Shown here piece by piece: positions 5,886-30,289 of a stretch of DNA of 32,000 bases. This DNA is from an uncultured Actinomycetota bacterium (GTDB lineage: Bacteria; Actinomycetota; Acidimicrobiia; Acidimicrobiales; Palsa-688): NCBI GenBank assembly GCA_963783945.1, contig CAWAPS010000005.1, positions 444,500 through 476,499 on the forward strand, written 5' to 3'. The position numbers were made by a program, and so were the translations under genes. Within the stretch, counting starts at the first letter, position 1; every line of letters starts with the position of its first letter. Below the pieces are notes generated by a model, which was given only the letters and a program-made list of their open reading frames with translations, was not told the origin of the DNA and did no database searches.

Positions 5886-6989
5886 TCACCCGCCAGTGTG
5901 CGGTGGCGCCGCGGGTAGTTGCACGGTGACGCAGAGCCCGCCAGCGGCCCGGGGCGTTAGGGTGAGGGTTCCGTCGTGTGCTTCGGCGATGCTCTTGACG
6001 ATGGCCAGGCCGAGGCCGACACCTGCGTGATCAGCGCGTATGCGCTTGGAGCCGCGCTGGAACGGCTCGACGAGGGTGGCGACCAGCTGTGGGGTGAGCT
6101 TCTCGCCGGTGTTCTCGACCGTGAGCACCACGCTCTTGGACTGCACACCGGTGGTGACCCAGACCGTGCCCTGCTCGGGCAGGTTGTGGACGATGGCGTT
6201 GTGTCCGAGGTTCGTCGTCATCTGCAGCAGGAGCGGGTGTGAGCCGATGGCGGGGGTGATGTCGCCGGAGGTCTTGATGGTGATGCCGCGTTTTTCTGCC
6301 AGGGGGAGGAGCGTCTCGGTGGCTTGTTCGGCTATGAGGGACAGGTCGACGTGTTCTGGGGTGAAGGAGCGCTGGTCGGCGCGGCTGAGCAGGAGCAGTG
6401 TTTCGGTGAGGTCGATCGCTCGGGTGTTGACGGCGTGGAGGCGGTCGACCAGTTCGTCGTGGCTGCGGTTTTGATCGTTGCGGGCCACGTCGAGAAGGGT
6501 TTGCGTGATCGCCAAGGGGGTGCGCAGCTCGTGGGAGGCGTTGGCTGCGAATCTCTGCTGTTCGGCGCTGTGGGTTTCGAGCCGGGCGAGCATGGTGTCG
6601 AAGGCGTCGGCGAGTTCTCGGAACTCGTCGCGGCGGCCCGGTAGCCGGATGCGGTGGGAGAGCCTTCCGGCGGCGGCGATGCGGGTGGCGTCCGTGATGC
6701 GGGTCAGGGGGGCGAGCATGCGTCCGGCGAGAATCCATCCTCCCACGAGACCGAACACCAGCAGGAACGCCAGCACGATGGCCGCGACCGAGCCGAAGCC
6801 GTGCAGGGGGTCGGAGTCGTCCACTACGAACCACAACGAGGGATGCATGTGGGAGAGCGCACCGTCGGGTATGTAGCGCAGAACGACCACCCAAACGGCC
6901 GCGAGCATCAAGACACCAGCGAGCATGAGGAAGCCGGCGTAGCTGAGAGTAAGTTTGAGGCGAACACTCAAACCAGGGGCTCTATCCAC
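5886..6989 (-). CDS. vanS: VanS-type sensor histidine kinase
   Basis: GTG at 6989 overlaps the vanR stop (GTGGATAG). Two TM segments flank a ~28-aa loop. HAMP region, H-box FAANASHELRTPL, N-box HNAIVHN and G-box GVGLGLAIV are present. The 538-aa ORF-track model is an upstream shadow extension. Confidence 0.85.
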   Translation of the reverse strand: MDRAPGLSVRLKLTLSYAGFLMLAGVLMLAAVWVVVLRYIPDGALSHMHPSLWFVVDDSDPLHGFGSVAAIVLAFLLVFGLVGGWILAGRMLAPLTRITDATRIAAAGRLSHRIRLPGRRDEFRELADAFDTMLARLETHSAEQQRFAANASHELRTPLAITQTLLDVARNDQNRSHDELVDRLHAVNTRAIDLTETLLLLSRADQRSFTPEHVDLSLIAEQATETLLPLAEKRGITIKTSGDITPAIGSHPLLLQMTTNLGHNAIVHNLPEQGTVWVTTGVQSKSVVLTVENTGEKLTPQLVATLVEPFQRGSKRIRADHAGVGLGLAIVKSIAEAHDGTLTLTPRAAGGLCVTVQLPAAPPHTGG

Positions 6990-7683
6990 GGTCTCCTCCC
7001 TTATGCACGGTGTCAGGCTGAGTGTCGATGCGGTAGCCGACGCCGGCCACGGTGGCGATAATCCACGGTTCGCCGAGCCGTTTGCGCAGGGCCGAGACCG
7101 TGATGCGCACGGCGTTGGTGAACGGGTCTGCGTTCTTATCCCACGCCCGTTCGAGTAGCTCTTCCGCGCTGACGACACCGCCTTCGGCCGCGACGAGAAC
7201 TTCGAGCACGGCAAACTGCTTGCGGGTGAGGGCGACGTAGCGGCCGCCGCGGTAGACCTCGCGCCGGAACGGATCCAGACGCAGGCTTGCGATCTCTCGC
7301 ACGGGTGGCCTGTTGTGGGCCCGCCTGCGGTCGAGCGCTCTGAGCCGGAGGACGAGCTCTTGGAGCTCGAAGGGCTTGGTGAGGTAGTCGTCGGCCCCGA
7401 GTTCGAACCCGGAGGCCTTGTCGTCGAGCCGGTCGGCAGCGGTGAGCATGAGGATCGGCATGCCGCTGCCGGAGGCGACGATGCGTTTGGCGATCTCATC
7501 ACCGCTGGGTCCGGGGATGTCGCGGTCGAGGACGGCGATATCGTAGGCGTTGATGCTCAGCAGTTCGAGAGCGGTGTCGCCGTCACCGGCGATGTCGGCG
7601 GCGATGGCTTCCAGGCGGAGCCCATCGCGGATGGCTTCTGCCATGTAGGGCTCGTCCTCGACGATCAACACACGCACGCTCAC
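6982..7683 (-). CDS. vanR: VanR-type OmpR-family response regulator
   Basis: The receiver domain begins VRVLIVEDEPYMAEAIRDGL and carries the LDRDIPG aspartate pocket. The C-terminal winged helix ends GVGYRID. GTG starts are available at 7683 and 7677. The ATG at 7728 would add a non-homologous extension over the promoter block. Confidence 0.85.
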   Translation of the reverse strand: MSVRVLIVEDEPYMAEAIRDGLRLEAIAADIAGDGDTALELLSINAYDIAVLDRDIPGPSGDEIAKRIVASGSGMPILMLTAADRLDDKASGFELGADDYLTKPFELQELVLRLRALDRRRAHNRPPVREIASLRLDPFRREVYRGGRYVALTRKQFAVLEVLVAAEGGVVSAEELLERAWDKNADPFTNAVRITVSALRKRLGEPWIIATVAGVGYRIDTQPDTVHKGGDRG

Positions 7684-7692
7684 GCCATCGTA

Positions 7693-7773
7693 CGAGCCGG
7701 GGCATATCGTCGGCGTATCGAAAACCACATACGTGCTGGCAACCCCACGGTGGCTTGAATTTTGGGGCGTGAC
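7693..7773 (+). promoter_or_regulatory. copy 1 of a duplicated ~81-bp van promoter-like block (putative VanR boxes)
   Basis: About 66 of 82 hand-aligned positions are identical to 9529-9609. It contains CATATCG (7703), CGTATCG (7714) and CATACGT (7728), the first two 11 bp apart, followed by TTGAAT. Confidence 0.55.
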
Positions 7774-7821
7774 GTACCGCGGACCAGTACAGGTAGCAGC
7801 CGTAGGTGATGGACGATCCTC

Positions 7822-7986
7822 ATGGCTGTGTCAGTGGTCATCGCCGCTATCGTCGGGGCCGTCGGTGACCGGTGGTTGGCGGCCCTGTCGTCCTTGGCCG
7901 AGTCGCCCATCCGCATTCTTCACGGGGACCACCCCTTTGGCCTGGTGTGGCTGCCTGTGGCGTCCCTGACGGAGTATGCCCCCTGA
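7822..7986 (+). CDS. small hypothetical protein, 54 aa (below the ORF-track cutoff)
   Basis: ATG at 7822 with an in-frame TGA stop at 7807-7809 just upstream and a TGA stop at 7984-7986. Translation is MAVSVVIAAIVGAVGDRWLAALSSLAESPIRILHGDHPFGLVWLPVASLTEYAP. About 44 of 54 codons end in G/C by hand count. It lies about 50 bp downstream of promoter copy 1. Confidence 0.4.
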   Translation: MAVSVVIAAIVGAVGDRWLAALSSLAESPIRILHGDHPFGLVWLPVASLTEYAP

Positions 7987-8141
7987 GCCGCTCAGCGGCC
8001 GCTCTCGCGTCGCGCCCCGAATACGGCAGCCTTGACCGCGCCACGAACCAGGTGCGGTGTCGACGCCGACTGCCTGCTAAAGGAGTACCTCCATCCTGAG
8101 CGGCGGACGGCTCGGCGACCACCCGGCGGCGGAGGGGGCGG

Positions 8142-8469
8142 ATGGCTGTCCCGGTCCTGTATGTCGCCCTCGCCCTGCTCGTACTGTTCGTCGGAGCGTC
8201 CGTGTATGGAGGGGCCACCACGTGGGGGCAGCTGGTGTGCGTGGCACGTGGCCGGCCCGGCGCCGACGCCCGAGACGGCAGCCGAGTCGCTGCGGCGGGC
8301 CGGGGCGGTGCGGGGGATGACCCTCGACATCAACCCGGAATGGGTTACGTTCAACTTCTGCATCCGCCCCGACCCCGCCAACCCCACATCGATCACCGGG
8401 GGCCAAGCTGCATTCACGGACGCAGCGCTCGTCCGACCGGTATCTCACACCTACCGAGGAGTCCCGTGA
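8142..8469 (+). pseudogene. small membrane-anchored protein gene with an apparent +1 frame switch, or two very small ORFs
   Basis: GGAGGGGG lies 3 nt before the ATG at 8142, giving a clean TM helix (MAVPVLYVALALLVLFVGASVYGG). After about 8240 the protein-like, high-GC3 frame is the +1 frame (APTPETAAESLRRAGAVRGMTLDINPEWVTFNFCIRPDPANPTSITGGQAAFTDAALVRP, stop 8467-8469). Confidence 0.4.
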
Positions 8470-8503
8470 CTTCTTCTCCGTGTCCACCATCTGACCGTCC
8501 CGT

Positions 8504-9391
8504 ATGCCGGCCGTCACGCGGGCCGGGCTCATAGACCGGCCGGCGGCCAAACGGACGCTGCGGGGCGGTCCGGCCGGGGCCCGGCGGGTGCTGGTCCTGC
8601 TGGCAGTCATCGTGGCCGGGGCGGTGGCCGGCGGTGTGGCCCTCATCCAGGCCGCCTGGCACACGCCCACCACGCCGGCCGGCTGCCGGGTCCCGGCGCT
8701 CTCCGGTTCGGGTACCTTCAAACTGTCGACGGACCAAGCCCAGAATGCCACGATCATCGCCGCGGTGGCCTTCAAACTGGGCTTGCCCGACCACGCCGTC
8801 ACCGTCGGCCTGGCCACCGCCCTTCGGGAATCGCGCCTGGAGAACCTGACCTACGGGGACCTGGACTCGCTCGGGCTGTTCCAGCAGCGCCCGTCGCAGG
8901 GCTGGGGCACCCCGGCGCAGATCCTGGATCCGGTGTACGCCGCCACAGCCTTCTACCAGCACCTGGAGCGGGTGCCCGGCTGGGAGACCATGGCCGTCAC
9001 CGACGCCGCCCAGTCCGTCCAGCACAGCGCCACCCCGCTGGCCTACGCCCCCTACGAGACCGAGGCCCGAGCCGTGGCGGCGGCCCTGACCGGTGAGACG
9101 CCGGCCGCCTTCGACTGCCGGCTGGACGGTTTCTCCGGCGCCGCCCCAGCGGTGTCGGCCCTGCCCGCCGCCGCCGTCCGGGAGAGGGGCTCGACCCTGC
9201 TCGGGGCGCCGGTGAGCAGCCAGAAGGTGGGCTGGGCGCTGGCGTCGTGGGCGGTGGGCCACGCCTGGCGCTACCACGTGCAGGCGGTCACCTTCGGGAA
9301 CTGGCGGTGGACCGCGACCTCGGGCCGCTGGGTGAACACCCCGAGTGCGGTGGCCGCCTCGCCGGCCGTCCAAGTGGACTACGGGAGCTGA
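8504..9391 (+). CDS. conserved actinobacterial membrane-anchored protein of unknown function, with SLT-like motifs
   Basis: 295 aa with an N-terminal TM (VLVLLAVIVAGAVAGGVALI). The motif block is TALRESRLENLTYGDLDSLGLFQQRPSQGWGT ... AAQSVQHSATPLAYAPYE. The E-S ... GLFQQ pattern resembles lytic transglycosylase motifs. The start is uncertain (8504 ATG or an internal GTG). Confidence 0.7.
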   Translation: MPAVTRAGLIDRPAAKRTLRGGPAGARRVLVLLAVIVAGAVAGGVALIQAAWHTPTTPAGCRVPALSGSGTFKLSTDQAQNATIIAAVAFKLGLPDHAVTVGLATALRESRLENLTYGDLDSLGLFQQRPSQGWGTPAQILDPVYAATAFYQHLERVPGWETMAVTDAAQSVQHSATPLAYAPYETEARAVAAALTGETPAAFDCRLDGFSGAAPAVSALPAAAVRERGSTLLGAPVSSQKVGWALASWAVGHAWRYHVQAVTFGNWRWTATSGRWVNTPSAVAASPAVQVDYGS

Positions 9392-9528
9392 CCGGCCGGC
9401 GCCGATCTCCCCCGGGGGCGACCAGCCCGCGGCCACCTCGAACAGGATCTCCCTCCTGGTCGGCGTGGCTGTGCAGGCGGCTGCCGGGGACTAGGCCGCG
9501 AACCGGCCCGCAGATCAGCAGCCTGTCG

Positions 9529-9609
9529 AGCCGGGAACATATCGTCGGCATATCCAAAACCGCATACGTAGTGGCAACATCAGGTTGTCTTGACTTGGAG
9601 GCGTGACCT
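9529..9609 (+). promoter_or_regulatory. copy 2 of the duplicated van promoter-like block, upstream of vanH
   Basis: CATATCG (9540), CATATCC (9551) and CATACGT (9565), then TTGACT (9592). It has the same order and spacing as copy 1 and lies 116 nt upstream of the vanH ATG. Confidence 0.6.
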
Positions 9610-9725
9610 TCAGCCAACCAGCACCAACAGCAGCCTGCTGTGCCCGATCACTGGCGCCCTCGTCTTCATTGGCCGCATCCGACCACCATGGCGCACTTGG
9701 CGAGGCAGTCAGCGCCCCCCCGCGA

Positions 9726-10688
9726 ATGGGAGTCACCATCTATGGATGCGGGCAGGACGAGGCCGCCCTGTTCCGAGAGCTGGCGCCTCGCTTTGGCGTC
9801 GTGCCGACTGTCACCGACGCAGGGGTGTCTGCGGCCAATCTTGAGATCGCATCTGGAAATCGATGTATCAGCGTCGGACACAAGCACCGAATCACGAGCT
9901 CCATCCTCGTTGCGCTTCGCCAAGCCGGCGTGAGGTACATCTCGACGAGAAGCGTTGGGTACAACCACATCGACGTCGAGTGCGCGGAGAGCGTGGGGAT
10001 CTCCGTCGAGAACGTCTCCTATTCGCCCGACAGCGTCGCTGATTACACGCTGATGCTGATGCTCATGGCGGTGCGACATGCCAAGTCCACCGTCAGCCGT
10101 GCTCAGGCCCATGACTACCGATTGAACGACGTGCGTGGCAGAGAACTCCGCGATATGACCGTCGGCGTCGTCGGAACAGGACGCATCGGTGCAGCCGTCG
10201 TGGACCGACTGCGGGGCTTCGGCTGTCGCGTACTCGCCAATGACCGCTTTCCCAAGACCTCTGCCGAGTACGTGCCTCTCGATGAGCTGCTACAGCAGAG
10301 CGACATCGTCACGCTCCATACACCACTCAACGCGGACACCCACCATCTTCTGAATCGGCAACGGATCGAGCAGATGCGGCACGGCGCCTTCATCATCAAT
10401 ACCGGACGCGGTTCACTTCTCGATACAGACGCCCTTCTTGTCGGGCTGGAAGGCCGTCAACTCGGCGGGGCGGCGTTGGACGTCGTCGAAGGAGAGGAAG
10501 GCGTCTTCTACTCCGACCACAGACGGCAAACCATCGAAAGTCAACTGTTCCTGCGCCTGCAACGGTTGCCGAACGTGCTCATCACGCCGCACACCGCCTA
10601 CTACACAGATCACGCGCTGCACGACATCGTGGAATTGACGCTCATCAACTGCCTACGGGTTGAAAGACGAGCGGCATGGGTCGCTTGA
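9726..10688 (+). CDS. vanH: D-lactate dehydrogenase / D-specific 2-hydroxyacid dehydrogenase VanH
   Basis: Begins MGVTIYGCGQDEAALFRELAPRFGV. Contains YSPDSVADYTLMLMLMAVR, the NAD motif VGVVGTGRIGAAV, INTGRG and PNVLITPHTAYYT. It appears colinear with enterococcal VanH from memory. The 3' end overlaps the vanA start. Confidence 0.9.
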   Translation: MGVTIYGCGQDEAALFRELAPRFGVVPTVTDAGVSAANLEIASGNRCISVGHKHRITSSILVALRQAGVRYISTRSVGYNHIDVECAESVGISVENVSYSPDSVADYTLMLMLMAVRHAKSTVSRAQAHDYRLNDVRGRELRDMTVGVVGTGRIGAAVVDRLRGFGCRVLANDRFPKTSAEYVPLDELLQQSDIVTLHTPLNADTHHLLNRQRIEQMRHGAFIINTGRGSLLDTDALLVGLEGRQLGGAALDVVEGEEGVFYSDHRRQTIESQLFLRLQRLPNVLITPHTAYYTDHALHDIVELTLINCLRVERRAAWVA

Positions 10689-11710
10689 AGATCGCGATCC
10701 TCTTCGGAGGGACTTCCGAAGAGCATCCCATCTCCGTCAAATCTACGCAGGAGGTCGCAAGGCACCTCGACCTCGACAAGTACGAGCCGTTCTACATCGG
10801 GATCACGAGAGGTGGTGCCTGGCAGTTGTGTGACGGCCCAGACGCAGATTGGGAAACCCGCCGTTGCCCCCCGGCGATGTTGTCACCGGACAGAAGTGTG
10901 CACGGATTGCTCGTCCGCGAGCAAGGACAGTACAGAACGATCCCCCTGGACGTGGTGTTTCCCGTCCTGCACGGCAAACTTGGTGAGGATGGCGCAATGC
11001 AGGGCTTGTTGGAGCTCACCGGCATCCCCTACGTAGGCTGCGACGTCCAAAGCTCTGCGCTGTGCATGGACAAATCCCTTGCGTATGTCGTCGCGGGCAA
11101 CGTGGGGATTGCTACGCCGAGGTTCTGGACCGTCGCCGCGAACGGGCATGGTGATCCCGGTCGGCTGACATATCCCGTCTTCGTCAAGCCCGCTCGCTCC
11201 GGTTCATCGTTCGGGGTCAGCAAAGTGTGGCGAATGGAAGAACTCCCGAGCGCCGTGCAAGCCGCAAGGCAATACGACACAAAGGTGTTGATCGAAGAGG
11301 CGGTCGTCGGTAGCGAGGTGGGATGCGCGATCTCCGGGAACGAAGCGGAACTGATAGCGGGCGAGCCAGATCGAATTGTTCTGTCCCATGGGTTCTTCAG
11401 AATCCATCAGGAAGATCAGCCGGAAAACGGTTCCGAGAACGCCACATTTGTCGTGCCGGCCGACATCTCGGCAGAAGTGCGTCAGCTCATTCAGGAGACA
11501 GCAACAACCATCTATCGCGCCTTGGGATGCAGGGGACTGGCTCGAGTGGACCTGTTCCTGAAGGAAGACGGCGAGCTAGTACTCAACGAGGTCAACACGT
11601 TGCCGGGTCTGACCTCGTACAGTCGCTATCCGAGAATGATGGCAGCCGCCGGACTGTCGCTTGCCGAAGTGATCGACCGGATCGTGTCGTTGGCATTGAG
11701 CGGAAAGTGA
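10676..11710 (+). CDS. vanA: D-alanine--(R)-lactate ligase, VanA/VanB type
   Basis: MGRLKIAILFGGTSEEHPISVKS, KPARSGSSFGV, EVGCAI and the VanA-diagnostic FRIHQE...ENGSENA segment, followed by EVNTLPGLTSYSRYPRMMAAAG. Confidence 0.92.
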   Translation: MGRLKIAILFGGTSEEHPISVKSTQEVARHLDLDKYEPFYIGITRGGAWQLCDGPDADWETRRCPPAMLSPDRSVHGLLVREQGQYRTIPLDVVFPVLHGKLGEDGAMQGLLELTGIPYVGCDVQSSALCMDKSLAYVVAGNVGIATPRFWTVAANGHGDPGRLTYPVFVKPARSGSSFGVSKVWRMEELPSAVQAARQYDTKVLIEEAVVGSEVGCAISGNEAELIAGEPDRIVLSHGFFRIHQEDQPENGSENATFVVPADISAEVRQLIQETATTIYRALGCRGLARVDLFLKEDGELVLNEVNTLPGLTSYSRYPRMMAAAGLSLAEVIDRIVSLALSGK

Positions 11711-11712
11711 CG

Positions 11713-12321
11713 ATGCACGACGACTTTGTCTTTGTCGATGAGGTGATACCCGGCACACGTTGGGACGCGAAGTACGCCACCTGGGACAACTTCACCGGCA
11801 AGCCGGTGGATGGGTATCTAGCAAACCGCATCGTCGGCTCGCGAGCGTTGTGTGCCGCCCTGGAAGTGGTGCGAGACCGCGCCACGTCCCTTGGCTTCGG
11901 CTTGCTGATTTGGGATGGGTACCGCCCGCAGCCCGCCGTAGACTGCTTTCTTCGCTGGTCGGAACAGCCCGAGGATGGCCAGACGAAGCCACGGCACTAT
12001 CCGAACATCGACAGATCCGAGATGTTCGAGAAGGGATATGTGGCCGCCAAGTCAGGTCACAGTCGGGGCAGTTCCGTCGACTTGACGCTCTACCAGTTGG
12101 CAACCGGTGAACTTGCTCCGATGGGCAGTCGCCATGACCTAATGGATCCAGTCTCACACCATGGTGCTGAGGGAATCACGCAGTGCGAAGCGAGAAACCG
12201 ACAAGTCCTCTGCTCGATGATGGAGGCCAGCGGCTTTCATCGATACGACTGTGAGTGGTGGCATTATACCCTCAGCGAGGAACCGTATCCGGACACCTAT
12301 TTCGATTTCCCCATCGTCTAG
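11713..12321 (+). CDS. vanX: D-Ala-D-Ala dipeptidase VanX
   Basis: ATG 2 nt after the vanA stop. Contains RWDAKYATWDNFTGKPVDGY, WDGYRP, the zinc-site SGHSRGSSVDLTL, EWWHY and YFDFP. Confidence 0.9.
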   Translation: MHDDFVFVDEVIPGTRWDAKYATWDNFTGKPVDGYLANRIVGSRALCAALEVVRDRATSLGFGLLIWDGYRPQPAVDCFLRWSEQPEDGQTKPRHYPNIDRSEMFEKGYVAAKSGHSRGSSVDLTLYQLATGELAPMGSRHDLMDPVSHHGAEGITQCEARNRQVLCSMMEASGFHRYDCEWWHYTLSEEPYPDTYFDFPIV

Positions 12322-12483: not shown

Positions 12484-13053
12484 TTCGCAGCTGCCCTAGC
12501 TGCGGCCCGGCTGATCATCGACGCGCAGGACTCCCCAGTCGTGCTTGTCGGCCACTCCTACGGCGGCGCCGTCATCAGCGAGGCAGGAACCGACCAGAAG
12601 GTGGCGGCCCTGGTCTACATCTGCGCGTTCGCGCCGGACAGGGACGAGTCGGTCAACACGCTTATCGCCGGTTTCCCGGCCGACGGGCCGCAGCCGCCGA
12701 TCCTGCCGCCCCGGGACGGCTTCCTGTTCCTGGACCGGAACAAATTCCACGCATCCTTCGCCGCCGACGTACCTGCCGACTTGGCCGCGTTCATGGCCGA
12801 CTCGCAGGTCCCATGGGGCCTGGAGGCCCTCGGCGGCCCGGTCACCGACCCCGCGTGGCGGACGAAGCCGAGCTGGTACATGGTCACGGCCGACGACCGA
12901 ATGATCCCTCCGACGGCCCAACGCACCATGTCCCAGCGGGCTGGGTCGACCGTGGTGGAGGTGGCGGCCAGTCACTCCGTTTACGTATCGCAACCGGCCG
13001 CCGTGGCGGACCTCATCAAGCAGGCCGCGTCCGCGGTCGCCGCGCAGCAGTAG
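12484..13053 (+). pseudogene. alpha/beta hydrolase lacking its 5' portion
   Basis: The frame opens only after a TAG at 12481-12483. The sequence starts mid-domain (LAAARLIIDAQDSPVVLVGHSYGG, the nucleophile elbow). The oxyanion-loop region expected about 60-70 aa upstream is absent, and no start codon or RBS precedes it. Confidence 0.65.
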
Positions 13054-16021: not shown

Positions 16022-16777
16022 CTACGGCGTGGGCGGCCGGAGTGAGCCGGTTTGTGGGCTCTGACCCGTGTCGACGAGGGCTTGGGCCACGTCGCGGATT
16101 CTGGTGTTGAGGTGTTGGGACGCTCGGCGCAGGATCTCGTAGGCCTGGTCGGCGGTGATGTGTTCGCGCTCCATCAGGATCCCTTGGGCCTGGCCGATCA
16201 TCTCCCGGGTGGCCAGCGCCCCCTGGATGGTGTCGCGCATCTCGTCTTCGTGAGCCTCGGCCGCGGTGAGGGCCAGGCCGGCCATGGCCGCGAGGATCAC
16301 GCCCTTGGCCCGGTCCAAAGCGCCGAAAGCGCGGGGATAGTGGGCGTAGAGAATGAGGGCGGCGCCCCGACTGGCGTCGTCGGATAGGCGCAACGCCAGG
16401 GCGCTGCGCACCCCCGCCTTGGCTGCGTCGGGCCCGAAGGACACCCAGCGGGGATCGTCGGCCAGGTCCTCGGCGTAGACCGTTCCGCCTTGATTGATGG
16501 CGTCGAGGCCGGGGCCCTCCCCGGCCTGGTGCTGGACCACGTCGACTCCGGCCGCCACCGAGTCGGTCCCCACCGGGGTGGCAGCGCTGTTGGTGTCGAT
16601 GACGAAGATGCTGGCAAAGTCACAGCCGTCGATGGTCTCCACCGCCAGGTCCACCACCGCTCGCAAGGTGTCAGCGGGGTTGCCGGCCGAGAACAGGGCC
16701 TGGGCCGTCTCCGAGAAGCTGGCCGTGAGCTCCGAACTGCGGTCGTCCGCGCTGGTGGGATGCTCGCCAGTAGTCAT
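16022..16777 (-). CDS. GAF-ANTAR domain RNA-binding regulator
   Basis: Internal ATG at 16777 preceded by GAGGA. GAF-like core, then ANTAR helices (ALATREMIGQAQGILMEREHITADQAYEILRRASQHLNTRIRDVAQALV). Confidence 0.85.
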   Translation of the reverse strand: MTTGEHPTSADDRSSELTASFSETAQALFSAGNPADTLRAVVDLAVETIDGCDFASIFVIDTNSAATPVGTDSVAAGVDVVQHQAGEGPGLDAINQGGTVYAEDLADDPRWVSFGPDAAKAGVRSALALRLSDDASRGAALILYAHYPRAFGALDRAKGVILAAMAGLALTAAEAHEDEMRDTIQGALATREMIGQAQGILMEREHITADQAYEILRRASQHLNTRIRDVAQALVDTGQSPQTGSLRPPTP

Positions 16778-17280
16778 AGGTCCTCGATCCGCGGATGTCT
16801 GGGATCGAACTCTATCGAGGGTCAGCGAATCGTCAACCGCCCGAGCCGGCACACCTCAACGGCGACATCACCGCCACGGCCACCCAAACCTGAGAAACGA
16901 AGCCGGACAAGCGATCTGCAGGGCTGACACCAGTTGACCGCCCAGACGGACCATGCCGATCGACGGCCCGGGCGTGACCGTCCGGTCGGGGCTTTGGCTC
17001 CGAACGTGCGCTCATGAAACTGTCGTCGGCGACACATCCAAACTGTCTCGAAAGGCCCGCTCACAGACCGGAGTGTTATGGCAGCCCCTCTTCGAAGCGC
17101 GTTCGTGACTCGTGTTAGACAGTCTTGAGGGGGATGCGGGTGCGGGCATTGCTGGCCGGGTGTAGTGTGTTTCCGGCACGGTGAATCCCGGTCGTGTTGG
17201 GTCAGCTTCGGCTGGCCCGGGAGCGATGCTCCGGACCCTGGTAGCGCGTGATTGGCAGCGCCTAATGCCAGGAGAGTCCT

Positions 17281-18281: not shown

Positions 18282-19166
18282 TCATCGATAGGCGGTCACC
18301 CGTCCATTGTTGCTGTGGGGGGTCGGAATGGTGTGTCGGGCGAGGAGCCAGTCGAGGGCGTTGTTGACGGCCGGGAGGGCCTTCTGGTCGAAGGCGTGGC
18401 CCATGCCGGGTACCAGATCGAGGCGACGGTGTGGGGAGTTGCAGGCTTGGTAGATGGCCTGGGCATCGGTCGTCGGGATGTAGCGGTCCTGGTCGCCGTG
18501 GACTATGGCGACGGGAACCACGATGCAACGGACCAGCTCGGCGGGGAATGGGGGGGCATCCCAGGTCGGGGCTATTCGAATGTGGAGGTGATGTTTGGCG
18601 ATTTGACGGCCGAGACGGGTGCGGGCGAGCCCGATCACCAGGGCGCCGGGGGCCGAGCGGGGGGTTCGCCAGGTTGCCGGGGCGCTGATACTGACCACAC
18701 CCGTCAACTCGTTGTCGCCTGAGGCGGCATAACGCAAGGCCGCGACAGCACCCATGGATGCCCCCACCAACACCACATTGAGCCCGGTCCGCTTGGCCCT
18801 GGCCACGGCCGCGGCGATGTCGTAGGACTCGAGGTCGCCGAGCGCGCATTGGCCTTCGGAGCGTCCATGGCCTCGAGAGTCGTAGGACACCACATCGAAT
18901 CCGGCGCCCCGGAGGGCCTCGGCTTGGCGCACGACCGCCACGTTGTCGCATGATCCGGCGAAGCCGTGCGCCAGTACGACTACGGCGCGTGCTGTTTCTG
19001 CCGACCAATACCGCCAGTGCAGCTTGACGCCGTCTGCGGTTATGAGCGCCTTGCTCGAATCTCGATCTGGCCCCGTGCCGGGCCACGCTGGGGTGAGCCT
19101 GCGGTGGCCGGCCTGGTGCCAGCGGTCGTTCCCAACGTCATGCCCTCGCTCACTGCCGGCTATCAC
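18282..19166 (-). CDS. alpha/beta hydrolase
   Basis: GTG at 19166 lies 5 nt after GGAGG. Contains HGFAGS, the nucleophile GASMG, and the HGDQDRYIP and GMGHAF motifs. Confidence 0.8.
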   Translation of the reverse strand: MIAGSERGHDVGNDRWHQAGHRRLTPAWPGTGPDRDSSKALITADGVKLHWRYWSAETARAVVVLAHGFAGSCDNVAVVRQAEALRGAGFDVVSYDSRGHGRSEGQCALGDLESYDIAAAVARAKRTGLNVVLVGASMGAVAALRYAASGDNELTGVVSISAPATWRTPRSAPGALVIGLARTRLGRQIAKHHLHIRIAPTWDAPPFPAELVRCIVVPVAIVHGDQDRYIPTTDAQAIYQACNSPHRRLDLVPGMGHAFDQKALPAVNNALDWLLARHTIPTPHSNNGRVTAYR

Positions 19167-19685
19167 TTTGACCTCCAAGCATTCGTCGGCGAATCGTGCC
19201 TGGGGAAAAAGGGGCCGGTTGAACTCCGCCGGGGTCCGGGGCGGCACGAAACAACTGTTACCACTATCGCAAATCGAATGGTCCCCCGCAACCGCAGACA
19301 GCGTTCAAACCGTCGCTGTCAGCGTATATGTAGTGAGCAGTGTCCTACGGCCGGGATGGGTCGGGACCGGAACCCAAGATGGAGGCGCCTCGGGCCTCCT
19401 TGTCAGACCGACCTGAGGAACTGGCGTTCCCGGCGTAAGGGTCTCCTCTTCTTAACCGATTCGAGTAGATCGCACGTAGTTGAGCCTGGTCAGGGTCGAA
19501 GCCTGGCCCGCGGATCACCGCCGGCACCCGCCGCCCGGGTAGTCGGACCGTCACAGAAAGTGGACCCGTCGAGTGATGGTGTGACTACTGCGGTACTCTC
19601 GGGTGGTTCGACGGGAGCGGCCCCGCTCCCGGCGTTGCTCCGGTCCCTGGTGACGCACCAAGAGCGATTTCACCAGGAGGGAGCG

Positions 19686-20696
19686 ATGCCGCTACCCACC
19701 ACGACCGGGTTGGCCAACGACTACGGTCTACTAGCCGGTCGAATCGGCGACGCGACTTTGCTGCGCCGCCGGCCCGCCTACTACGTCACCAAGATGGCGC
19801 TTACCATCGTCGCCTTCGTCGGGGGCTGGGTGGCGCTGTTCGCGGTGGGTGATTCCTGGGCTTCTCTGGGCATCGCCGCACTTCTTGCTTTCCTGTCGAC
19901 CCAAGTGGTGTTCTTCGGCCACGACGCCGGCCATCAGCAAATATTCACATCCTGCCAGGCCAACCGCAGGGTCGGGCTCGTAGTCGCGAACGTGCTGTCC
20001 GGACTGAGCTTTGGATGGTGGGTGCCCAAGCACAACGCCCATCACGCTCACCCGAACGTCATCGGCCGAGACCCTGACATCGGCGACGGAACCGTGGCCC
20101 TAGCCTTCAGCACTGAGACCGTACGCAACCGCCACGGCGCCAGCCGGGTTATGGCTCGCTACCAGGCGTGGCTGTTCTTTCCCCTTCTCCTGCTCGAAGG
20201 GGTCGGACTGCACATCTCGGGCGTTCACGATCTGCTCCGGCGACGGGATCGTTCCGCCGCCGTCGAGGGAATGCTGCTCGGCCTCCACTCCGTGCTGTAC
20301 GTCACCGCCGTAATCTGGGTGCTGTCACCGCTTCGGGCCCTGGCTTTCGTGGCCGTCCAGCAGGGACTCTTCGGCCTGTACCTCGGGTGCACGTTCGCGC
20401 CCAACCACAAGGGCATGCCAGTCTTAGTCGACGACTCGGACCTGGGATTCGTCCGCCGCCAGATCATCACCAGCCGGAACGTAACTGGTGGCCCCCTGAT
20501 CGCCTTCCTGTTCGGCGGGCTCAACTATCAGATCGAACATCACCTCTTCCCCGCCATGCCTCGCCCCAACCTGCCAAAAGCGCGAGCTATCATCCAGATG
20601 TTCTGCGCTGATCACGACATCACCTATCACGAATCCAGCGTCTTCGGCTCCTACCGCCAGGCGCTCGGCTATCTCAACATGGTGGGGGCGGGCTAG
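19686..20696 (+). CDS. membrane fatty acid desaturase (second, different subfamily)
   Basis: ATG at 19686 after AGGAGGGA. His boxes HDAGHQQ, HNAHHAHPN and QIEHHLFP. The 240 upstream codons of ORF 18966..20696 overlap the divergent hydrolase gene and look non-coding. Confidence 0.85.
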   Translation: MPLPTTTGLANDYGLLAGRIGDATLLRRRPAYYVTKMALTIVAFVGGWVALFAVGDSWASLGIAALLAFLSTQVVFFGHDAGHQQIFTSCQANRRVGLVVANVLSGLSFGWWVPKHNAHHAHPNVIGRDPDIGDGTVALAFSTETVRNRHGASRVMARYQAWLFFPLLLLEGVGLHISGVHDLLRRRDRSAAVEGMLLGLHSVLYVTAVIWVLSPLRALAFVAVQQGLFGLYLGCTFAPNHKGMPVLVDDSDLGFVRRQIITSRNVTGGPLIAFLFGGLNYQIEHHLFPAMPRPNLPKARAIIQMFCADHDITYHESSVFGSYRQALGYLNMVGAG

Positions 20697-20822: not shown

Positions 20823-21563
20823 TCAGGGCCGGGCCGTCGGGGTGGTAGGGGCCCATGCGGCGGGATCGAGGGTGCCGTCGATCGAGGCTTGGGCGACATC
20901 GGTAAGACGCAGATTGTGGTTCCGGGCGTAACGCCGTAAACGGGAGAACGCTTCGGCCAAGTCGACGCCGGCCCGTTCAGCCATCACGCCTTTCGCTTGC
21001 TCGATCACGACACGGCTCTCCAGGGCGCGGGTGAGCTGTTCGTTGACGCGTTGGGTTTCGAGCACGGCCCGGTGCTGAACGATGCCTATGGTAGCCAGGT
21101 CGGCGAACGCTTGGGCCACGACCACGTCGGCGTCGTCCATGGGGGCCTCCTCGACCGCGAACAGGTTCAGGGCGCCGATGGTTGCGTGCCGCAGCCGCAG
21201 CGGCAGCGCGAAGACCGAGCCGAAGCCGGCCTCTAAAGCAGCCGCCGAGAACCGGGGCCAGCGGCCGGTACCGGCGCGCAGGTTCTCATGTTCGATGCGC
21301 TGGCCGGTATGGAAGGCGTCCAGGCAGGGGCCTTCGTCGGCCTGCAGCTCGAACAGTTCCAGGATCCGCATGGCCTCGTTGGATGAGGCCATCAACCGCA
21401 ACTCACCGTCGGGGGAGGCCAGCATCACTCCGGCTGCGGACACGCCGAGCAGCTTCACACAGCGGTCTGCCAGGCCGGTGAGTAGCTCCACCACGTCGAA
21501 GTCTTCCACCAGGGTGTCGGCTAGCTCGACGAGCATCTGCACGACGGAGGACTCTCGGGTCAT
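20823..21563 (-). CDS. GAF-ANTAR domain RNA-binding regulator
   Basis: AAGGAGGG lies before the ATG. GAF core (EGPCLDAFHTGQ), then ANTAR (ALESRVVIEQAKGVMAERAGVDLAEAFSRLRRYARNHNLRLTDVAQ). Confidence 0.85.
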   Translation of the reverse strand: MTRESSVVQMLVELADTLVEDFDVVELLTGLADRCVKLLGVSAAGVMLASPDGELRLMASSNEAMRILELFELQADEGPCLDAFHTGQRIEHENLRAGTGRWPRFSAAALEAGFGSVFALPLRLRHATIGALNLFAVEEAPMDDADVVVAQAFADLATIGIVQHRAVLETQRVNEQLTRALESRVVIEQAKGVMAERAGVDLAEAFSRLRRYARNHNLRLTDVAQASIDGTLDPAAWAPTTPTARP

Positions 21564-21686: not shown

Positions 21687-22382
21687 TCATGAGAACCGCA
21701 GCGTGCGGTCCACGACCTCTTGGGCCACGTCGTGGAGCAGGCGATCGTGGCTGAACGCGTACGCTCGTAGATGGATGAGTGCTTCGCCGACACTCACCCC
21801 TAGCTGGACGGCCACCATGCCGGCGGCGTTGTGCACCACGAAGCGGAAGTCGGCGCCGAACTCCAATTCCCTGGCCAACCCGCCCGGGGGTGCCGCGGCT
21901 TGGACGTCGAGCACCCAACGGGCGGCGACGTCGGCCATTACCAACGCGTCGGCGTGCTGGCCGTCGCTCAAGGGTCCGGGCCGGTCCCGATACAAGTTCA
22001 AGGCGCCGAGGCGGACAGTGCCCACCCGCAGCGGGAACCCGAAGACGGCCCGCGCTCCCGCCTCTACCGCCGGTGGCGTGAAGGCCAACCAGCGAGGGCT
22101 GGCAGGGTCAGCCAGGTCGGGCTCGAGCACCACGTCGTTGTACCGGTAAGCGTCCACGCACGGACCCTCACCCAGGGTGAACTGCAACTCCTCGATCAGG
22201 TTGCTCACCTGGTTTGTCGAGCACAACGATCCCCGGGGTATCTCGCCCGACATCAACATGACCCCTGTGCCCGTGATACCGATGACATGTGCGCCCACCT
22301 CGCACAGCCGAGCCGCCGCCGGCCGGCCGTCGTCACCCGCGGACAGTTCATCCAAGATACGCCGCAGCCGCTCACCCGCCAT
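21687..22382 (-). CDS. GAF-ANTAR domain RNA-binding regulator
   Basis: GAF core (GEGPCVDAYRYND, FGFPLRVGTVRLGALNLY), then an ANTAR-like C-terminus (VVHNAAGMVAVQLGVSVGEALIHLRAYAFSHDRLLHDVAQEVV). Confidence 0.8.
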   Translation of the reverse strand: MAGERLRRILDELSAGDDGRPAAARLCEVGAHVIGITGTGVMLMSGEIPRGSLCSTNQVSNLIEELQFTLGEGPCVDAYRYNDVVLEPDLADPASPRWLAFTPPAVEAGARAVFGFPLRVGTVRLGALNLYRDRPGPLSDGQHADALVMADVAARWVLDVQAAAPPGGLARELEFGADFRFVVHNAAGMVAVQLGVSVGEALIHLRAYAFSHDRLLHDVAQEVVDRTLRFS

Positions 22383-29305: not shown

Positions 29306-30289
29306 TCAGGCGTCGGGCGGGCTGGTCGATTGGACCCACGCTTGGCGCAGGGAGGCCGGTATCCGACCTCGATTGGGGATGTCCAGGCCGTGGCGTCGAG
29401 CCCAGTCTCGGATCTCGGCCGGGGAGGGATCGCTCTGGCGTTGTGGGACGGACCTCAAGTTCGGCTCATGGCCGATTCGCTCTATTGCTGCGGGTTCGGT
29501 GGAGACCCAGGCATGGGCGGCGGCCAGGTAGCGGTAGGTCCATTCCTCCGCCAGGCTCCGGGTGTCGCAGAACACGATGGGAATGTTGGGCCAGCGGACC
29601 TGGCATTCGGCGATCCCATCGGCGACTAGGGAGGGTCGGACCCGGTCTTGCTTGTAGATCTGCGAGTAGCGGTCCTCGACCACGACGGCGGCGCGGGGCA
29701 GGGCGGCCAGTTCGCCGAGGGCGTAGCGGAGCCGGCCGCTGGTGAGGCTGGCGATCAGGTCGGGCACGGACTTCCGTTCCACCGCGGCGACGAGCACTCC
29801 GTCGAGGATGATCCCGTAGTCGCCGCAGGGCAGGCTTCGGGTGGTCGTGCGCACCTGCTGGCCGGCGAAGTGGTAAGCGTAACGTTCGTGGGCGTCGACG
29901 ACGATCTCGAGCTCTGTGATGCCGGCGGCCCGGGCGGTGGGCAGGTTGACCTGAGGGCGGGCCTGTTTACGGGTGCGGGGGGACTGCCAGAACACCGCGT
30001 TCCGACCCCGGGCGGTGGTGAAGACCAGCTGCGAGCGGTTCTCTCTGGCTCGGGCGGCGACGATGTCAATGGCCGCCCCCCGACGGGCGCAGGAGCGCAG
30101 CGGCACCCGTTCCACGATGTCCGGATCACGTGGCCACTCTTCGGCCGGGACCGGGTAGCAGTAGAGGGCTTTGGTACGGGGCCAGGTTCCGGCAGTGCGC
30201 AAGACGATCCCTTCGCCCAGCGGCACCCGGAGCAGATAGGCGAGGGTGGAGTCCGGATGGGGGTTGGTGGCGATGATTAGTTCTTGCAC
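29306..30289 (-). CDS. ERCC4/XPF-type nuclease domain fused to an Lsr2-type C-terminal DNA-binding domain
   Basis: EIVVDAHERYAY ... LPCGDYGIILDGVLVAAVERKSVPDLIASLTSGRLRYALGELAALPRAAVVVED matches the GDY...ERK ERCC4 signature. The C-terminus PSPAEIRDWARRHGLDIPNRGRIPASLRQAW matches the Lsr2 RGR-hook domain (compare [26 protein letters not shown]). The N-terminal ~130 aa are unassigned. GTG start with no Shine-Dalgarno. Confidence 0.8.
   Translation of the reverse strand: MQELIIATNPHPDSTLAYLLRVPLGEGIVLRTAGTWPRTKALYCYPVPAEEWPRDPDIVERVPLRSCARRGAAIDIVAARARENRSQLVFTTARGRNAVFWQSPRTRKQARPQVNLPTARAAGITELEIVVDAHERYAYHFAGQQVRTTTRSLPCGDYGIILDGVLVAAVERKSVPDLIASLTSGRLRYALGELAALPRAAVVVEDRYSQIYKQDRVRPSLVADGIAECQVRWPNIPIVFCDTRSLAEEWTYRYLAAAHAWVSTEPAAIERIGHEPNLRSVPQRQSDPSPAEIRDWARRHGLDIPNRGRIPASLRQAWVQSTSPPDA

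Follow-up and report, generated by a model that had tools for sequence, protein, structure and literature searches.

The window, that is, the whole stretch of 32,000 nucleotides analyzed here, comes from an uncultured Actinomycetota bacterium of the Acidimicrobiales (GenBank assembly GCA_963783945.1, contig CAWAPS010000005.1) and carries a set of van genes. The genes for the sensor kinase VanS and the response regulator VanR lie on the minus strand, and are followed on the plus strand by a remnant of a vanY carboxypeptidase gene, a gene for a hypothetical protein of 295 amino acids, and vanH, vanA and vanX (Table 1). A block of DNA is found twice in this region, once directly next to vanR (copy 1) and once ahead of vanH (copy 2). 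A first-pass annotation had taken the two blocks for promoter/operator modules of the van regulon, and the comparisons described below support that assignment. We consider it highly likely that each block is one copy of an actinobacterial-type, VanR-dependent, leaderless van promoter cassette, based on conservation of the sequence, its geometry, its continuity with reading frames and its homology to mapped promoters of Streptomyces coelicolor.

Local alignment of the two whole intergenic regions places the repeat at 7693–7801 versus 9527–9635 (~109 bp, 84/109 positions identical), with a score of 87 compared to 17.3 ± 2.2 (maximum 27) for 1000 dinucleotide-preserving shuffles (z = 31), so that the identity is clearly above that of shuffled controls. 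The first-pass annotation had reported a block of ~81 bp with about 66 of 82 positions identical by hand, in the same orientation; the orientation was confirmed and the count was close, as a global alignment of the same intervals gives 64/81 identical positions, but the block is longer and copy 2 begins at 9527 rather than 9529. A repeat search returned the ungapped 59-nt segment 7703–7761 versus 9538–9596 (81% identity). Outside the blocks, gapped global alignment of the flanks yields the background value of 59–60%, in agreement with the earlier statement that the surrounding intergenic DNA is unrelated. The 32-nt core of the block occurs only twice in the 32-kb window when up to 3 mismatches are tolerated (0 expected), and a profile hidden Markov model (HMM) of 101 homologous cassettes recognizes two sites only, 7700–7773 (E = 1e-18) and 9535–9608 (E = 7e-18). 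No further copies or lone operators were found in the window by core pattern, 18-mer or HMM.

Each copy contains three heptamers, CATATCG (7703), CGTATCG (7714) and CATACGT (7728) in copy 1 and CATATCG (9538), CATATCC (9549) and CATACGT (9563) in copy 2, spaced by 11 and 14 bp in both copies, exactly as annotated before. We refer to the first two heptamers and the 4 bp between them as site A. Copy 1 abuts vanR and copy 2 ends in the vanH frame. The continuation of copy 2 into the vanH reading frame, together with the similar placement of the cassette in every vanHAX locus of the comparison below, bears out the earlier view that it stands ahead of vanH. The VanH protein read from GTG 9603 starts with an N-terminal extension (residues 1–41), to which the NCBIfam models VanH-AOV and VanH-Ac1 align, and its enzyme core begins at ~9726 (MGVTIYGC). 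In 10 of the 11 other vanHAX loci that were scored, the cassette start is also in the reading frame of vanH. The open reading frames of vanH, vanA and vanX overlap, and vanA and vanX would be co-transcribed with vanH.

Table 1. Genes and predicted regulatory features of the van region (positions are those of the window).
Feature	Position	Strand	Basis
vanS, sensor kinase gene	5886..6989	-	Pfam HAMP, HisKA, HATPase_c; best NCBIfam VanS-O, below cutoff
vanR, response regulator gene, start GTG 7677-7675 (MRVLIVEDEP)	6982..7677	-	Pfam Response_reg, Trans_reg_C
TACGAT, proposed -10 (TAnnnT) of leaderless vanRS promoter	7687..7692	-	conserved in 59 loci
Cassette copy 1 (bidirectional vanR / vanY-remnant control region)	7693..7801	+	local alignment, HMM
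Site A copy 1, CATATCG-TCGG-CGTATCG, proposed high-affinity dimer site for phosphorylated VanR (VanR~P), common to both divergent promoters	7703..7720		conserved columns
Copy 1 third heptamer CATACGT (7728-7734) and GGCAAC (7738-7743)	7728..7743	+	conserved columns
Copy 1 TTGAAT, hexamer at predicted -10 position	7755..7760	+	homology to S. coelicolor vanH/vanK promoters
Copy 1 conserved start GTG 7769 and first CA-rich codons (VTYRGPVQVAA)	7769..7801	+	
vanY pseudogene remnant	7780..7986	+	tblastn, protein alignment; intact homologue matches Pfam VanY
Gene for 295-amino-acid hypothetical protein, between the two cassettes	8504..9391	+	G + C content at third codon positions (GC3) 0.92
Cassette copy 2 (vanHAX promoter and 5' coding end)	9527..9635	+	local alignment, HMM
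Site A copy 2, CATATCG-TCGG-CATATCC	9538..9555	+	
Copy 2 CATACGT (9563-9569) and GGCAAC (9573-9578)	9563..9578	+	
Copy 2 TTGACT, hexamer at predicted -10 position, 7 nt before GTG 9603	9590..9595	+	
vanH, from GTG 9603, 361 amino acids	9603..10688	+	open frame, cassette start, NCBIfam
vanA	10676..11710	+	Pfam, NCBIfam
vanX	11707..12321	+	Pfam, NCBIfam

Relatives of the window VanR were searched in one genome per species, which yielded 80 vanRS loci (VanR identity 85–96%) from Streptomyces, Solirubrobacterales, Gaiellales, Acidimicrobiia, Chloroflexota, Dormibacterota and one myxobacterium. The 32-nt core (≤7 mismatches) is present in 77 of the 80, nearly always at the distance from vanR seen in the window and pointing away from it. 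Only 12 of the loci have vanHAX within 10 kb; each of them has an additional cassette in the orientation of vanH, and these copies sit ~90–115 bp upstream of the conserved part of vanH. The remaining copies head vanK-like, vanY-like, murF and other genes. In the 68 loci without vanHAX within 10 kb, the gene divergent from vanR is usually vanY or an S11 DD-carboxypeptidase gene and less often vanJ. As this minimal vanRS-carboxypeptidase module is spread over several phyla, frequent horizontal transfer is suggested.

From these loci 101 cassette instances were placed in an ungapped stack, in which columns +32 to +66 (counted from the first heptamer) played no part in selecting the instances; these columns are 75–100% conserved. 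The consensus reads CATATCG TCGG CATATCG AAAACCG CATACGT GCT GGCAAC ACCACGCTGCC TTGACT GGCGGC, followed by ATG ACC TAC AGC GAA CCA GCA CGA ACA. The most conserved positions are those of the 11-bp-spaced heptamers (T2, T4, C5, G6, T13, A14, T15, and C16, all ≥95%), with T27, A28, C29, G30, G35, A38, A39, and C40 conserved at 95–100% and the hexamer columns T52 and T57 at 96 and 100%, respectively. Among the 28 copies located away from vanR, conservation starts sharply at the first heptamer and fades at ~+90. There are no gaps between the first heptamer and the hexamer on the arm directed away from vanR (the plus arm), and the start lies exactly at +64 in 86 of the 101 cassettes. Relative to the conserved start codon (+1), site A is located at ~-64 to -47, CATACGT at ~-39 to -33, GGCAAC at ~-29 to -24, and the hexamer TTGA(C/A)T at ~-12 to -7. 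GGCAAC is 88–100% conserved and falls within what would nominally be the spacer separating the -35 and -10 regions.

The window VanR is ~92% identical to S. coelicolor VanR (PDB 7LZ9/7LZA), including an identical recognition helix, and a cognate regulator of the S. coelicolor type is thus encoded alongside the cassette. The DNA sequence recognized by S. coelicolor VanR has been stated as not known (PMC8329863), and our literature search for an experimentally defined actinobacterial VanR site found no such determination. The starts of the two heptamers are separated by 11 bp in each copy as well as in the 101-cassette consensus, within the 10–11 bp period of a direct-repeat site, and these repeats are also the most conserved columns, which fits the tandem OmpR-family site that had been proposed for them. 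They are the best candidate for the VanR site. We further propose that CATACGT together with GGCAAC serves in both copies as a weaker proximal VanR site and/or as an RNA polymerase contact.

A divergent, possibly leaderless vanRS promoter using the same boxes had been suggested on the basis of TACGAT at 7692–7687 on the minus strand. This hexamer is present, and the suggestion is well supported by comparison. Read towards vanR, 59 loci share the arrangement CGATAYG-CCGA-CGATATG, 10 nt, TAGCAT, 6–9 nt, ATG CGT GTG CTG ATC; the window has CGATACG-CCGA-CGATATG (7720–7703), CCCCGGCTCG, TACGAT, 9 nt and GTG 7677. The TAnnnT hexamer (consensus TAGCAT) is found exactly 10 nt from the proximal heptamer in the 59 loci, and TACGAT aligns with TAATCT in the promoter of S. 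coelicolor vanR, one of the genes documented as leaderless (PMC3160421). The vanR start itself has to be moved, as GTG 7683, used in the first-pass annotation, lies only 3 nt from the hexamer and the 59-locus alignment identifies GTG 7677 as the homologous start. In six loci (L010, L062, L064, L071, L073, and L078) no plus arm is detectable, and both heptamers and TAnnnT are kept at the spacing of the vanR arm. Similarly, a sister locus with the gene order of the window (vanS, vanR, a homologue of the 295-amino-acid protein, vanHAX; L081:5700-7200, ENA ERZ25039546 contig_70385) has ~480–570 bp deleted after core position +30 of copy 1, and retains the heptamers and the vanR -10. Its vanH and vanA genes are called as fragments. 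Since the heptamers are kept in loci without a plus arm, they appear to be the constant partner of the vanR promoter, placed with respect to the -10 as in a pho box.

The plus arm can be read in the same manner, its consensus being GCATACG-TGCT-GGCAACA (+24 to +41), 10 nt, the hexamer, 6 nt and ATG, so that both arms share a 7-4-7 / 10 / 6 / 6–7 layout. GCATACG-TGCT-GGCAACA may thus be a second VanR site, weaker and nearer to the promoter, to which binding would be cooperative with the strong site upstream, an idea that does not account for the near-invariance of GGCAAC. Alternatively, GGCAAC and TTGACT could constitute the promoter of a dedicated alternative sigma factor or a second regulator, with VanR acting through site A only, or not directly. 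The strong conservation of GGCAAC within a nominal spacer would agree with this, as would a hexamer that does not conform to TAnnnT and the failure to detect a sigma-70-like promoter. We nonetheless regard it as unlikely, because the vanR arm has an ordinary TAnnnT, no linked sigma factor gene was noticed beside the cassette or vanRS across the phyla, and the same geometry on both arms (7-4-7, 10 nt, hexamer, 6 nt, start) favors a second, degenerate VanR site. GGCAAC was also considered as a sigma-54 element (-24/-12) or as an element for an extracytoplasmic function sigma factor (-35, 16–17 nt), and rejected because the spacing does not fit. To our knowledge, there is no sigma-54 in Actinobacteria.

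In 96 of the 101 cassettes an ATG or GTG stands at +64 or +65, counted from the first heptamer, and translation from it gives an open reading frame of at least 150 residues in 81 of the 101. As a control for the choice of frame, the cassette frame is open for at least 150 codons in 80/99 cases, compared to 8/99 and 31/99 for the other two frames. The proteins headed in this way are VanY M15 carboxypeptidases (n = 34), S11 DD-carboxypeptidases (n = 13), VanH (n = 10), VanJ (n = 8), VanK (FemAB; n = 5), Cys-rich lipoproteins (n = 6), and MurF, a PhyH-like protein and a STAND NTPase (one each). In L013, L033, L041, L066, and L070, the cassette-headed gene divergent from vanR encodes a Cys-rich, secreted or lipoprotein-like protein of 180–210 amino acids without a Pfam match; these would be uncharacterized members of the VanR regulon.

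Previous work documents vanH, vanK, and vanR of S. coelicolor as leaderless genes (Zheng et al. 2011, PMC3160421, Table 1, citing Hong et al. 2004). The 23-mers listed there for vanH (GAGGCGCCTTGAATAGAGGCATG), vanK (CCGCCGCCTTGACTGGGGGCATG), and vanR (CGACTCGTAATCTCGACACCATG) match the corresponding cassette positions of locus L045 with 2, 1, and 1 mismatches, respectively. L045 and the window copies fall into one alignment and one HMM family (E ~1e-18), which makes the window blocks homologous to the S. coelicolor promoters. By this homology, TTGAAT in copy 1 and TTGACT in copy 2 are likely to occupy the -10 position, and GTG 7769 and GTG 9603 would be combined transcription and translation starts; GTG 9603 is read in this way because the equivalent S. 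coelicolor promoters are documented as leaderless. Two earlier statements are changed by this result. No convincing -10 hexamer had been seen on the plus strand, but the conserved CTTGA(A/C)T takes that position for a transcript predicted to start at the start codon, like those mapped for vanH and vanK of S. coelicolor, and GGCGTGAC, which had been regarded as a promoter element only, holds the start codon itself (ATG/GTG at this position in 96/101 cassettes).

The similarity between the window copies runs on through ~11 codons past GTG 7769 and GTG 9603, and across the cassettes ~9 CA-rich codons after the start are conserved at the nucleotide level. Codons 5–9 (GAA CCA GCA CGA ACA) have an A in third position in 51–70% of the cassettes, compared to 7% in the remainder of the genes concerned, and third positions in the early codons are conserved as much as first and second ones. 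The predicted mRNAs have a folding energy of -4.3 kcal/mol over their first 36 nt, compared to -10.3 kcal/mol for windows deeper in the gene (Wilcoxon p = 5e-17). The early codons thus seem to be constrained as nucleic acid, for instance for an unstructured, CA-rich 5' end of a leaderless mRNA, and a functional peptide is less likely. Martin-Farmer and Janssen are said to have found, in 1999, that CA-rich sequence after the start codon raises translation.

The opposite view is that selection acts on the shared N-terminal peptide (MTYSEPARTAARRTRS-like), which might be a targeting or turnover tag, and that the similarity of the DNA beyond the start codon follows from it. Such a peptide is found in frame on at least 10 unrelated protein families, and its arginine-rich part would be well placed on the cytoplasmic side of the VanY, VanJ, and S11 peptidase membrane anchors. 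It is, however, present on cytoplasmic (VanH, VanK, MurF) as well as membrane proteins, third codon positions are equally conserved with use of rare A-ending codons, and the two window peptides differ at 6 of 10 residues (VTYRGPVQVAA versus VTFSQPAPTAA) with the CA-rich composition kept. We therefore hold selection on the peptide to be quite improbable, and favor a constraint on the nucleic acid.

That the two blocks are a neutral relic of recent local duplication or gene conversion, without a regulatory role of their own, seems to us very improbable. The nine bases before the heptamers (CGAGCCGGG) are identical in both copies, though weakly conserved in other copies not adjacent to vanR, and the 10-nt sequence CAGCAGCCTG occurs on both sides of copy 2 (9516–9525 and 9628–9637), which a duplication could explain. 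The flank repeat is not general, however, with one clear chance match among 104 cassettes, and the flanks are unrelated. The window copies are 71% identical across the cassette and each ranks only ~60th of 100 among the neighbors of the other, so that they are no closer to each other than to the copies in the 80 other genomes; cassette pairs within one locus are 73.5% identical, compared to 76.4% between loci. As within-locus pairs are no closer than between-locus pairs, the similarity is more readily attributed to selection, and conservation is position-specific with rigid spacing across phyla. Local duplication, as implied in the first-pass annotation, is not borne out, and by these sequence comparisons the repeat is an ancient conserved module kept by selection, not the result of recent copying. 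We also considered CAGCAGCCTG as the footprint of an insertion or mobile element; it is the longest flank repeat of the 104 cassettes, tied with one other, and probably due to chance.

It is equally hard to believe that what is conserved is a structured RNA specified by the block (a 5' leader, attenuator, riboswitch or small RNA): conservation does extend ~27 nt beyond the start codon at the nucleotide level and GCTGCC...GGCGGC of the consensus could pair around TTGACT, but an Rfam scan of the blocks gave no relevant match at E ≤1, the window copies fold no better than shuffles (z -0.3 to +1.8), the 5' ends of the predicted mRNAs are unusually unstructured, no compensatory base changes in a stem were seen, and S. 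coelicolor transcripts start at the start codon, leaving most of the block untranscribed (PMC3160421).

The first-pass annotation placed copy 1 ahead of an accessory operon. This is not supported, as copy 1 heads a frameshifted and truncated vanY remnant and the 295-amino-acid protein belongs to a widespread family without linkage to van genes. GTG 7769 opens a frame of 66 codons only, and none of the other cassettes in the set of 101 has 8 nt between hexamer and start. In a tblastn search, residues 8–58 of the VanY protein of L008 match 7780–7932 (45% identity, E = 1e-7). What is left codes for the N-terminal membrane anchor and the stretch preceding the catalytic domain, which itself is gone; an in-frame TGA interrupts the remnant at 7807, GTG 7769 is in a different frame, and the frame of the remnant closes at 7986. 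On this evidence 7780–7986 is recognizable as a decayed vanY pseudogene. The VanH extension (9603–9725, ..SSSLAASDHHGALGEAVSAPP..) resembles the pre-domain segment of VanY (..SSSSTASS..HRGALGEAESAVP..) minus the membrane helix, which hints that the vanH cassette was derived from a vanY 5' end. Beyond +33, the two copies show no significant similarity when aligned as DNA with gaps (score 42.75, shuffle maximum 42.5).

The 295-amino-acid protein has no Pfam or NCBIfam match and 6288 homologues, mostly in Acidimicrobiales-type metagenome bins, with none in the 80 vanRS loci. The sister locus L081 carries an 84%-identical homologue and has lost the plus arm of copy 1 by deletion. The gene is probably outside the van regulon. 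No terminator-like site was detected between copy 1 and this gene in a scan of 7500–9800, and because the vanY gene of copy 1 has decayed, transcription into the 295-amino-acid gene would be read-through at most. The segment 8310–8470 upstream of the gene is conserved with L081 and holds a possible small open reading frame (MTLDINPEW), after which the frames diverge. The G + C content is patchy over 8001–12321 (~60% for vanHAX and 69–71% for the region of the 295-amino-acid gene with its GC3 of 0.92, compared to a window mean of ~65%), suggesting that parts are of different origin.

Elsewhere in the window, an alpha/beta-hydrolase frame directly after vanX (12541–13053) matches only the C-terminal part of the Pfam profile (positions 70–216) and may be truncated. 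Three paralogous GAF-ANTAR regulator genes (16022–16852, 20823–21563, and 21687–22382) lie within 6 kb on the minus strand, a protein encoded at 29306–30289 (minus strand) has both an ERCC4 nuclease domain and an Lsr2 DNA-binding domain, and two fatty-acid desaturase genes are present (662–1687 and 18966–20696).

Taken as VanR-dependent promoters, the two cassettes would operate as follows. VanS would sense the glycopeptide and VanR would become phosphorylated, upon which a VanR~P dimer would bind site A and probably recruit a second dimer to the weaker proximal site overlapping the -35 region. This binding would offset the poor core promoter elements and allow transcription to fire, with the ATG or GTG doubling as transcription start and start codon. 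Copy 2 is predicted to drive vanH-vanA-vanX, with VanH translated from GTG 9603. Copy 1 is expected to be bidirectional: on the minus strand, TACGAT follows site A after 10 bp, with GTG 7677 another 9 nt on, a PhoB-like class II arrangement that could provide positive autoregulation of leaderless vanRS, and the plus arm would formerly have driven a vanY carboxypeptidase gene that has since decayed in the window lineage. Binding of VanR, the start sites in the window organism and the role of the early codons are what we infer from the comparison, and the same holds for induction of the window promoters.

Several observations weigh against this interpretation. In Amycolatopsis balhimycina, gel shifts with VnlR failed and the motif was undetermined (Kilian et al. 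2016, PMC5036315). The half-sites can be read in either orientation, because the CATATG core is nearly palindromic. The usual A at -11 is missing from the hexamer TTGA(C/A)T, and a scan of 7500–9800 for consensus sigma-70 promoters returned nothing. Copy 1 has 8 nt between hexamer and start and copy 2 has 7 nt, compared to 6 nt in the consensus; transcription may begin 1–2 nt before the GTG, and the function of copy 1 may be impaired. The leaderless mapping is second-hand, from the table in PMC3160421, in which the bold start marks are invisible in plain text. Finally, GGCAAC sits where a promoter spacer is expected, and the scheme above does not explain its near-invariance.

A broader proposal is that operator, promoter, start codon and ~9 codons together make up a portable cassette, that genes join the VanR regulon by in-frame fusion to it, that the early codons have a nucleic-acid function, and that the CATATCG repeat is the VanR site; we give this proposal as a whole an even chance of being right. 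On a leaderless mRNA, promoter and start codon are inseparable, and a gene would thus join only through an in-frame fusion, which would explain why at least 10 unrelated families start with the same CA-rich codons across phyla. If true, the early codons would serve leaderless translation or promoter escape, and the families that joined would include VanY, S11 carboxypeptidase, VanH, VanJ, VanK, MurF, PhyH-like oxygenase, Cys-rich lipoproteins, and STAND NTPase. The shared leaderless start and early codons would also suggest a general route for leaderless-promoter regulons to acquire genes.

VanRS-controlled van clusters of soil actinobacteria are regarded as a reservoir of clinical vancomycin resistance. 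The ~100 cassettes and the window give a precise candidate for the VanR operator, (G)CATATCG-N4-(G)CATATCG plus the proximal CATACGT..GGCAAC, and a fixed promoter geometry for both arms. The motif could be used to predict VanR regulons from genomes and metagenomes, and could guide the design of glycopeptide biosensors and the modeling of VanR on DNA.

The VanR operators of enterococci (at PR, PH, and PYG) contain the 12-bp sequence (T/C)CGTANGAAA(T/A)T, and binding is enhanced by phosphorylation (PMC4405338). As proposed for the van cassettes, the regulatory and the resistance promoters each have an operator, direct repeats lie upstream of a weak -35, and there are more sites at the resistance than at the regulatory promoter (PMC4405338). 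The enterococcal proteins are <20% identical to S. coelicolor VanR (PMC8329863), and the 12-bp sequence has no match with ≤2 mismatches in either block of the window, with 4 matches elsewhere in the window compared to 7.5 expected by chance. Unlike the transcripts predicted for the cassette, the enterococcal mRNAs have leaders.

In the pho box bound by PhoB, and in OmpR-family operators, two 7-bp direct repeats with a 4-bp spacer, and hence an 11-bp period, are bound by a head-to-tail dimer. Site A has the same 7-bp direct repeats, spacer and period, and on the vanR arm its 18 bp end 10 bp before the -10 and stand in for the -35 element, as for PhoB. In contrast to the pho box, the repeat sequence is different and the cassette transcripts are predicted to be leaderless, and on the plus arm the strong site lies farther upstream (-64 to -47) and in the opposite orientation with respect to transcription, with a second, degenerate site after it.

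The closest known counterpart is the van cluster of S. coelicolor, in which vanRp, vanJp, vanKp and vanHp are described as leaderless and as dependent on VanR and vancomycin (PMC3160421, PMC6001138, citing Hong et al. 2004). In S. coelicolor as in the window, vanS-vanR are divergent from an accessory gene and vanHAX has its own promoter. The -10/start segment GCCTTGA(A/C)T..GGC ATG of S. coelicolor is homologous to that of the window, and its vanR -10 is TAATCT where the window has TACGAT. The window differs in that it is without vanJ or vanK, that the divergent gene is a decayed vanY, that the host has ~65% G + C, that GTG is used as the start, with a hexamer-to-start gap that is 1–2 nt longer, and that its promoters are predicted from sequence. 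VanR-dependent leaderless van promoters, first mapped in S. coelicolor, were known already, and the window very likely provides another example of them; what goes beyond this is a candidate actinobacterial VanR operator, and a cassette that includes the start codon and ~9 codons and heads unrelated genes across phyla.

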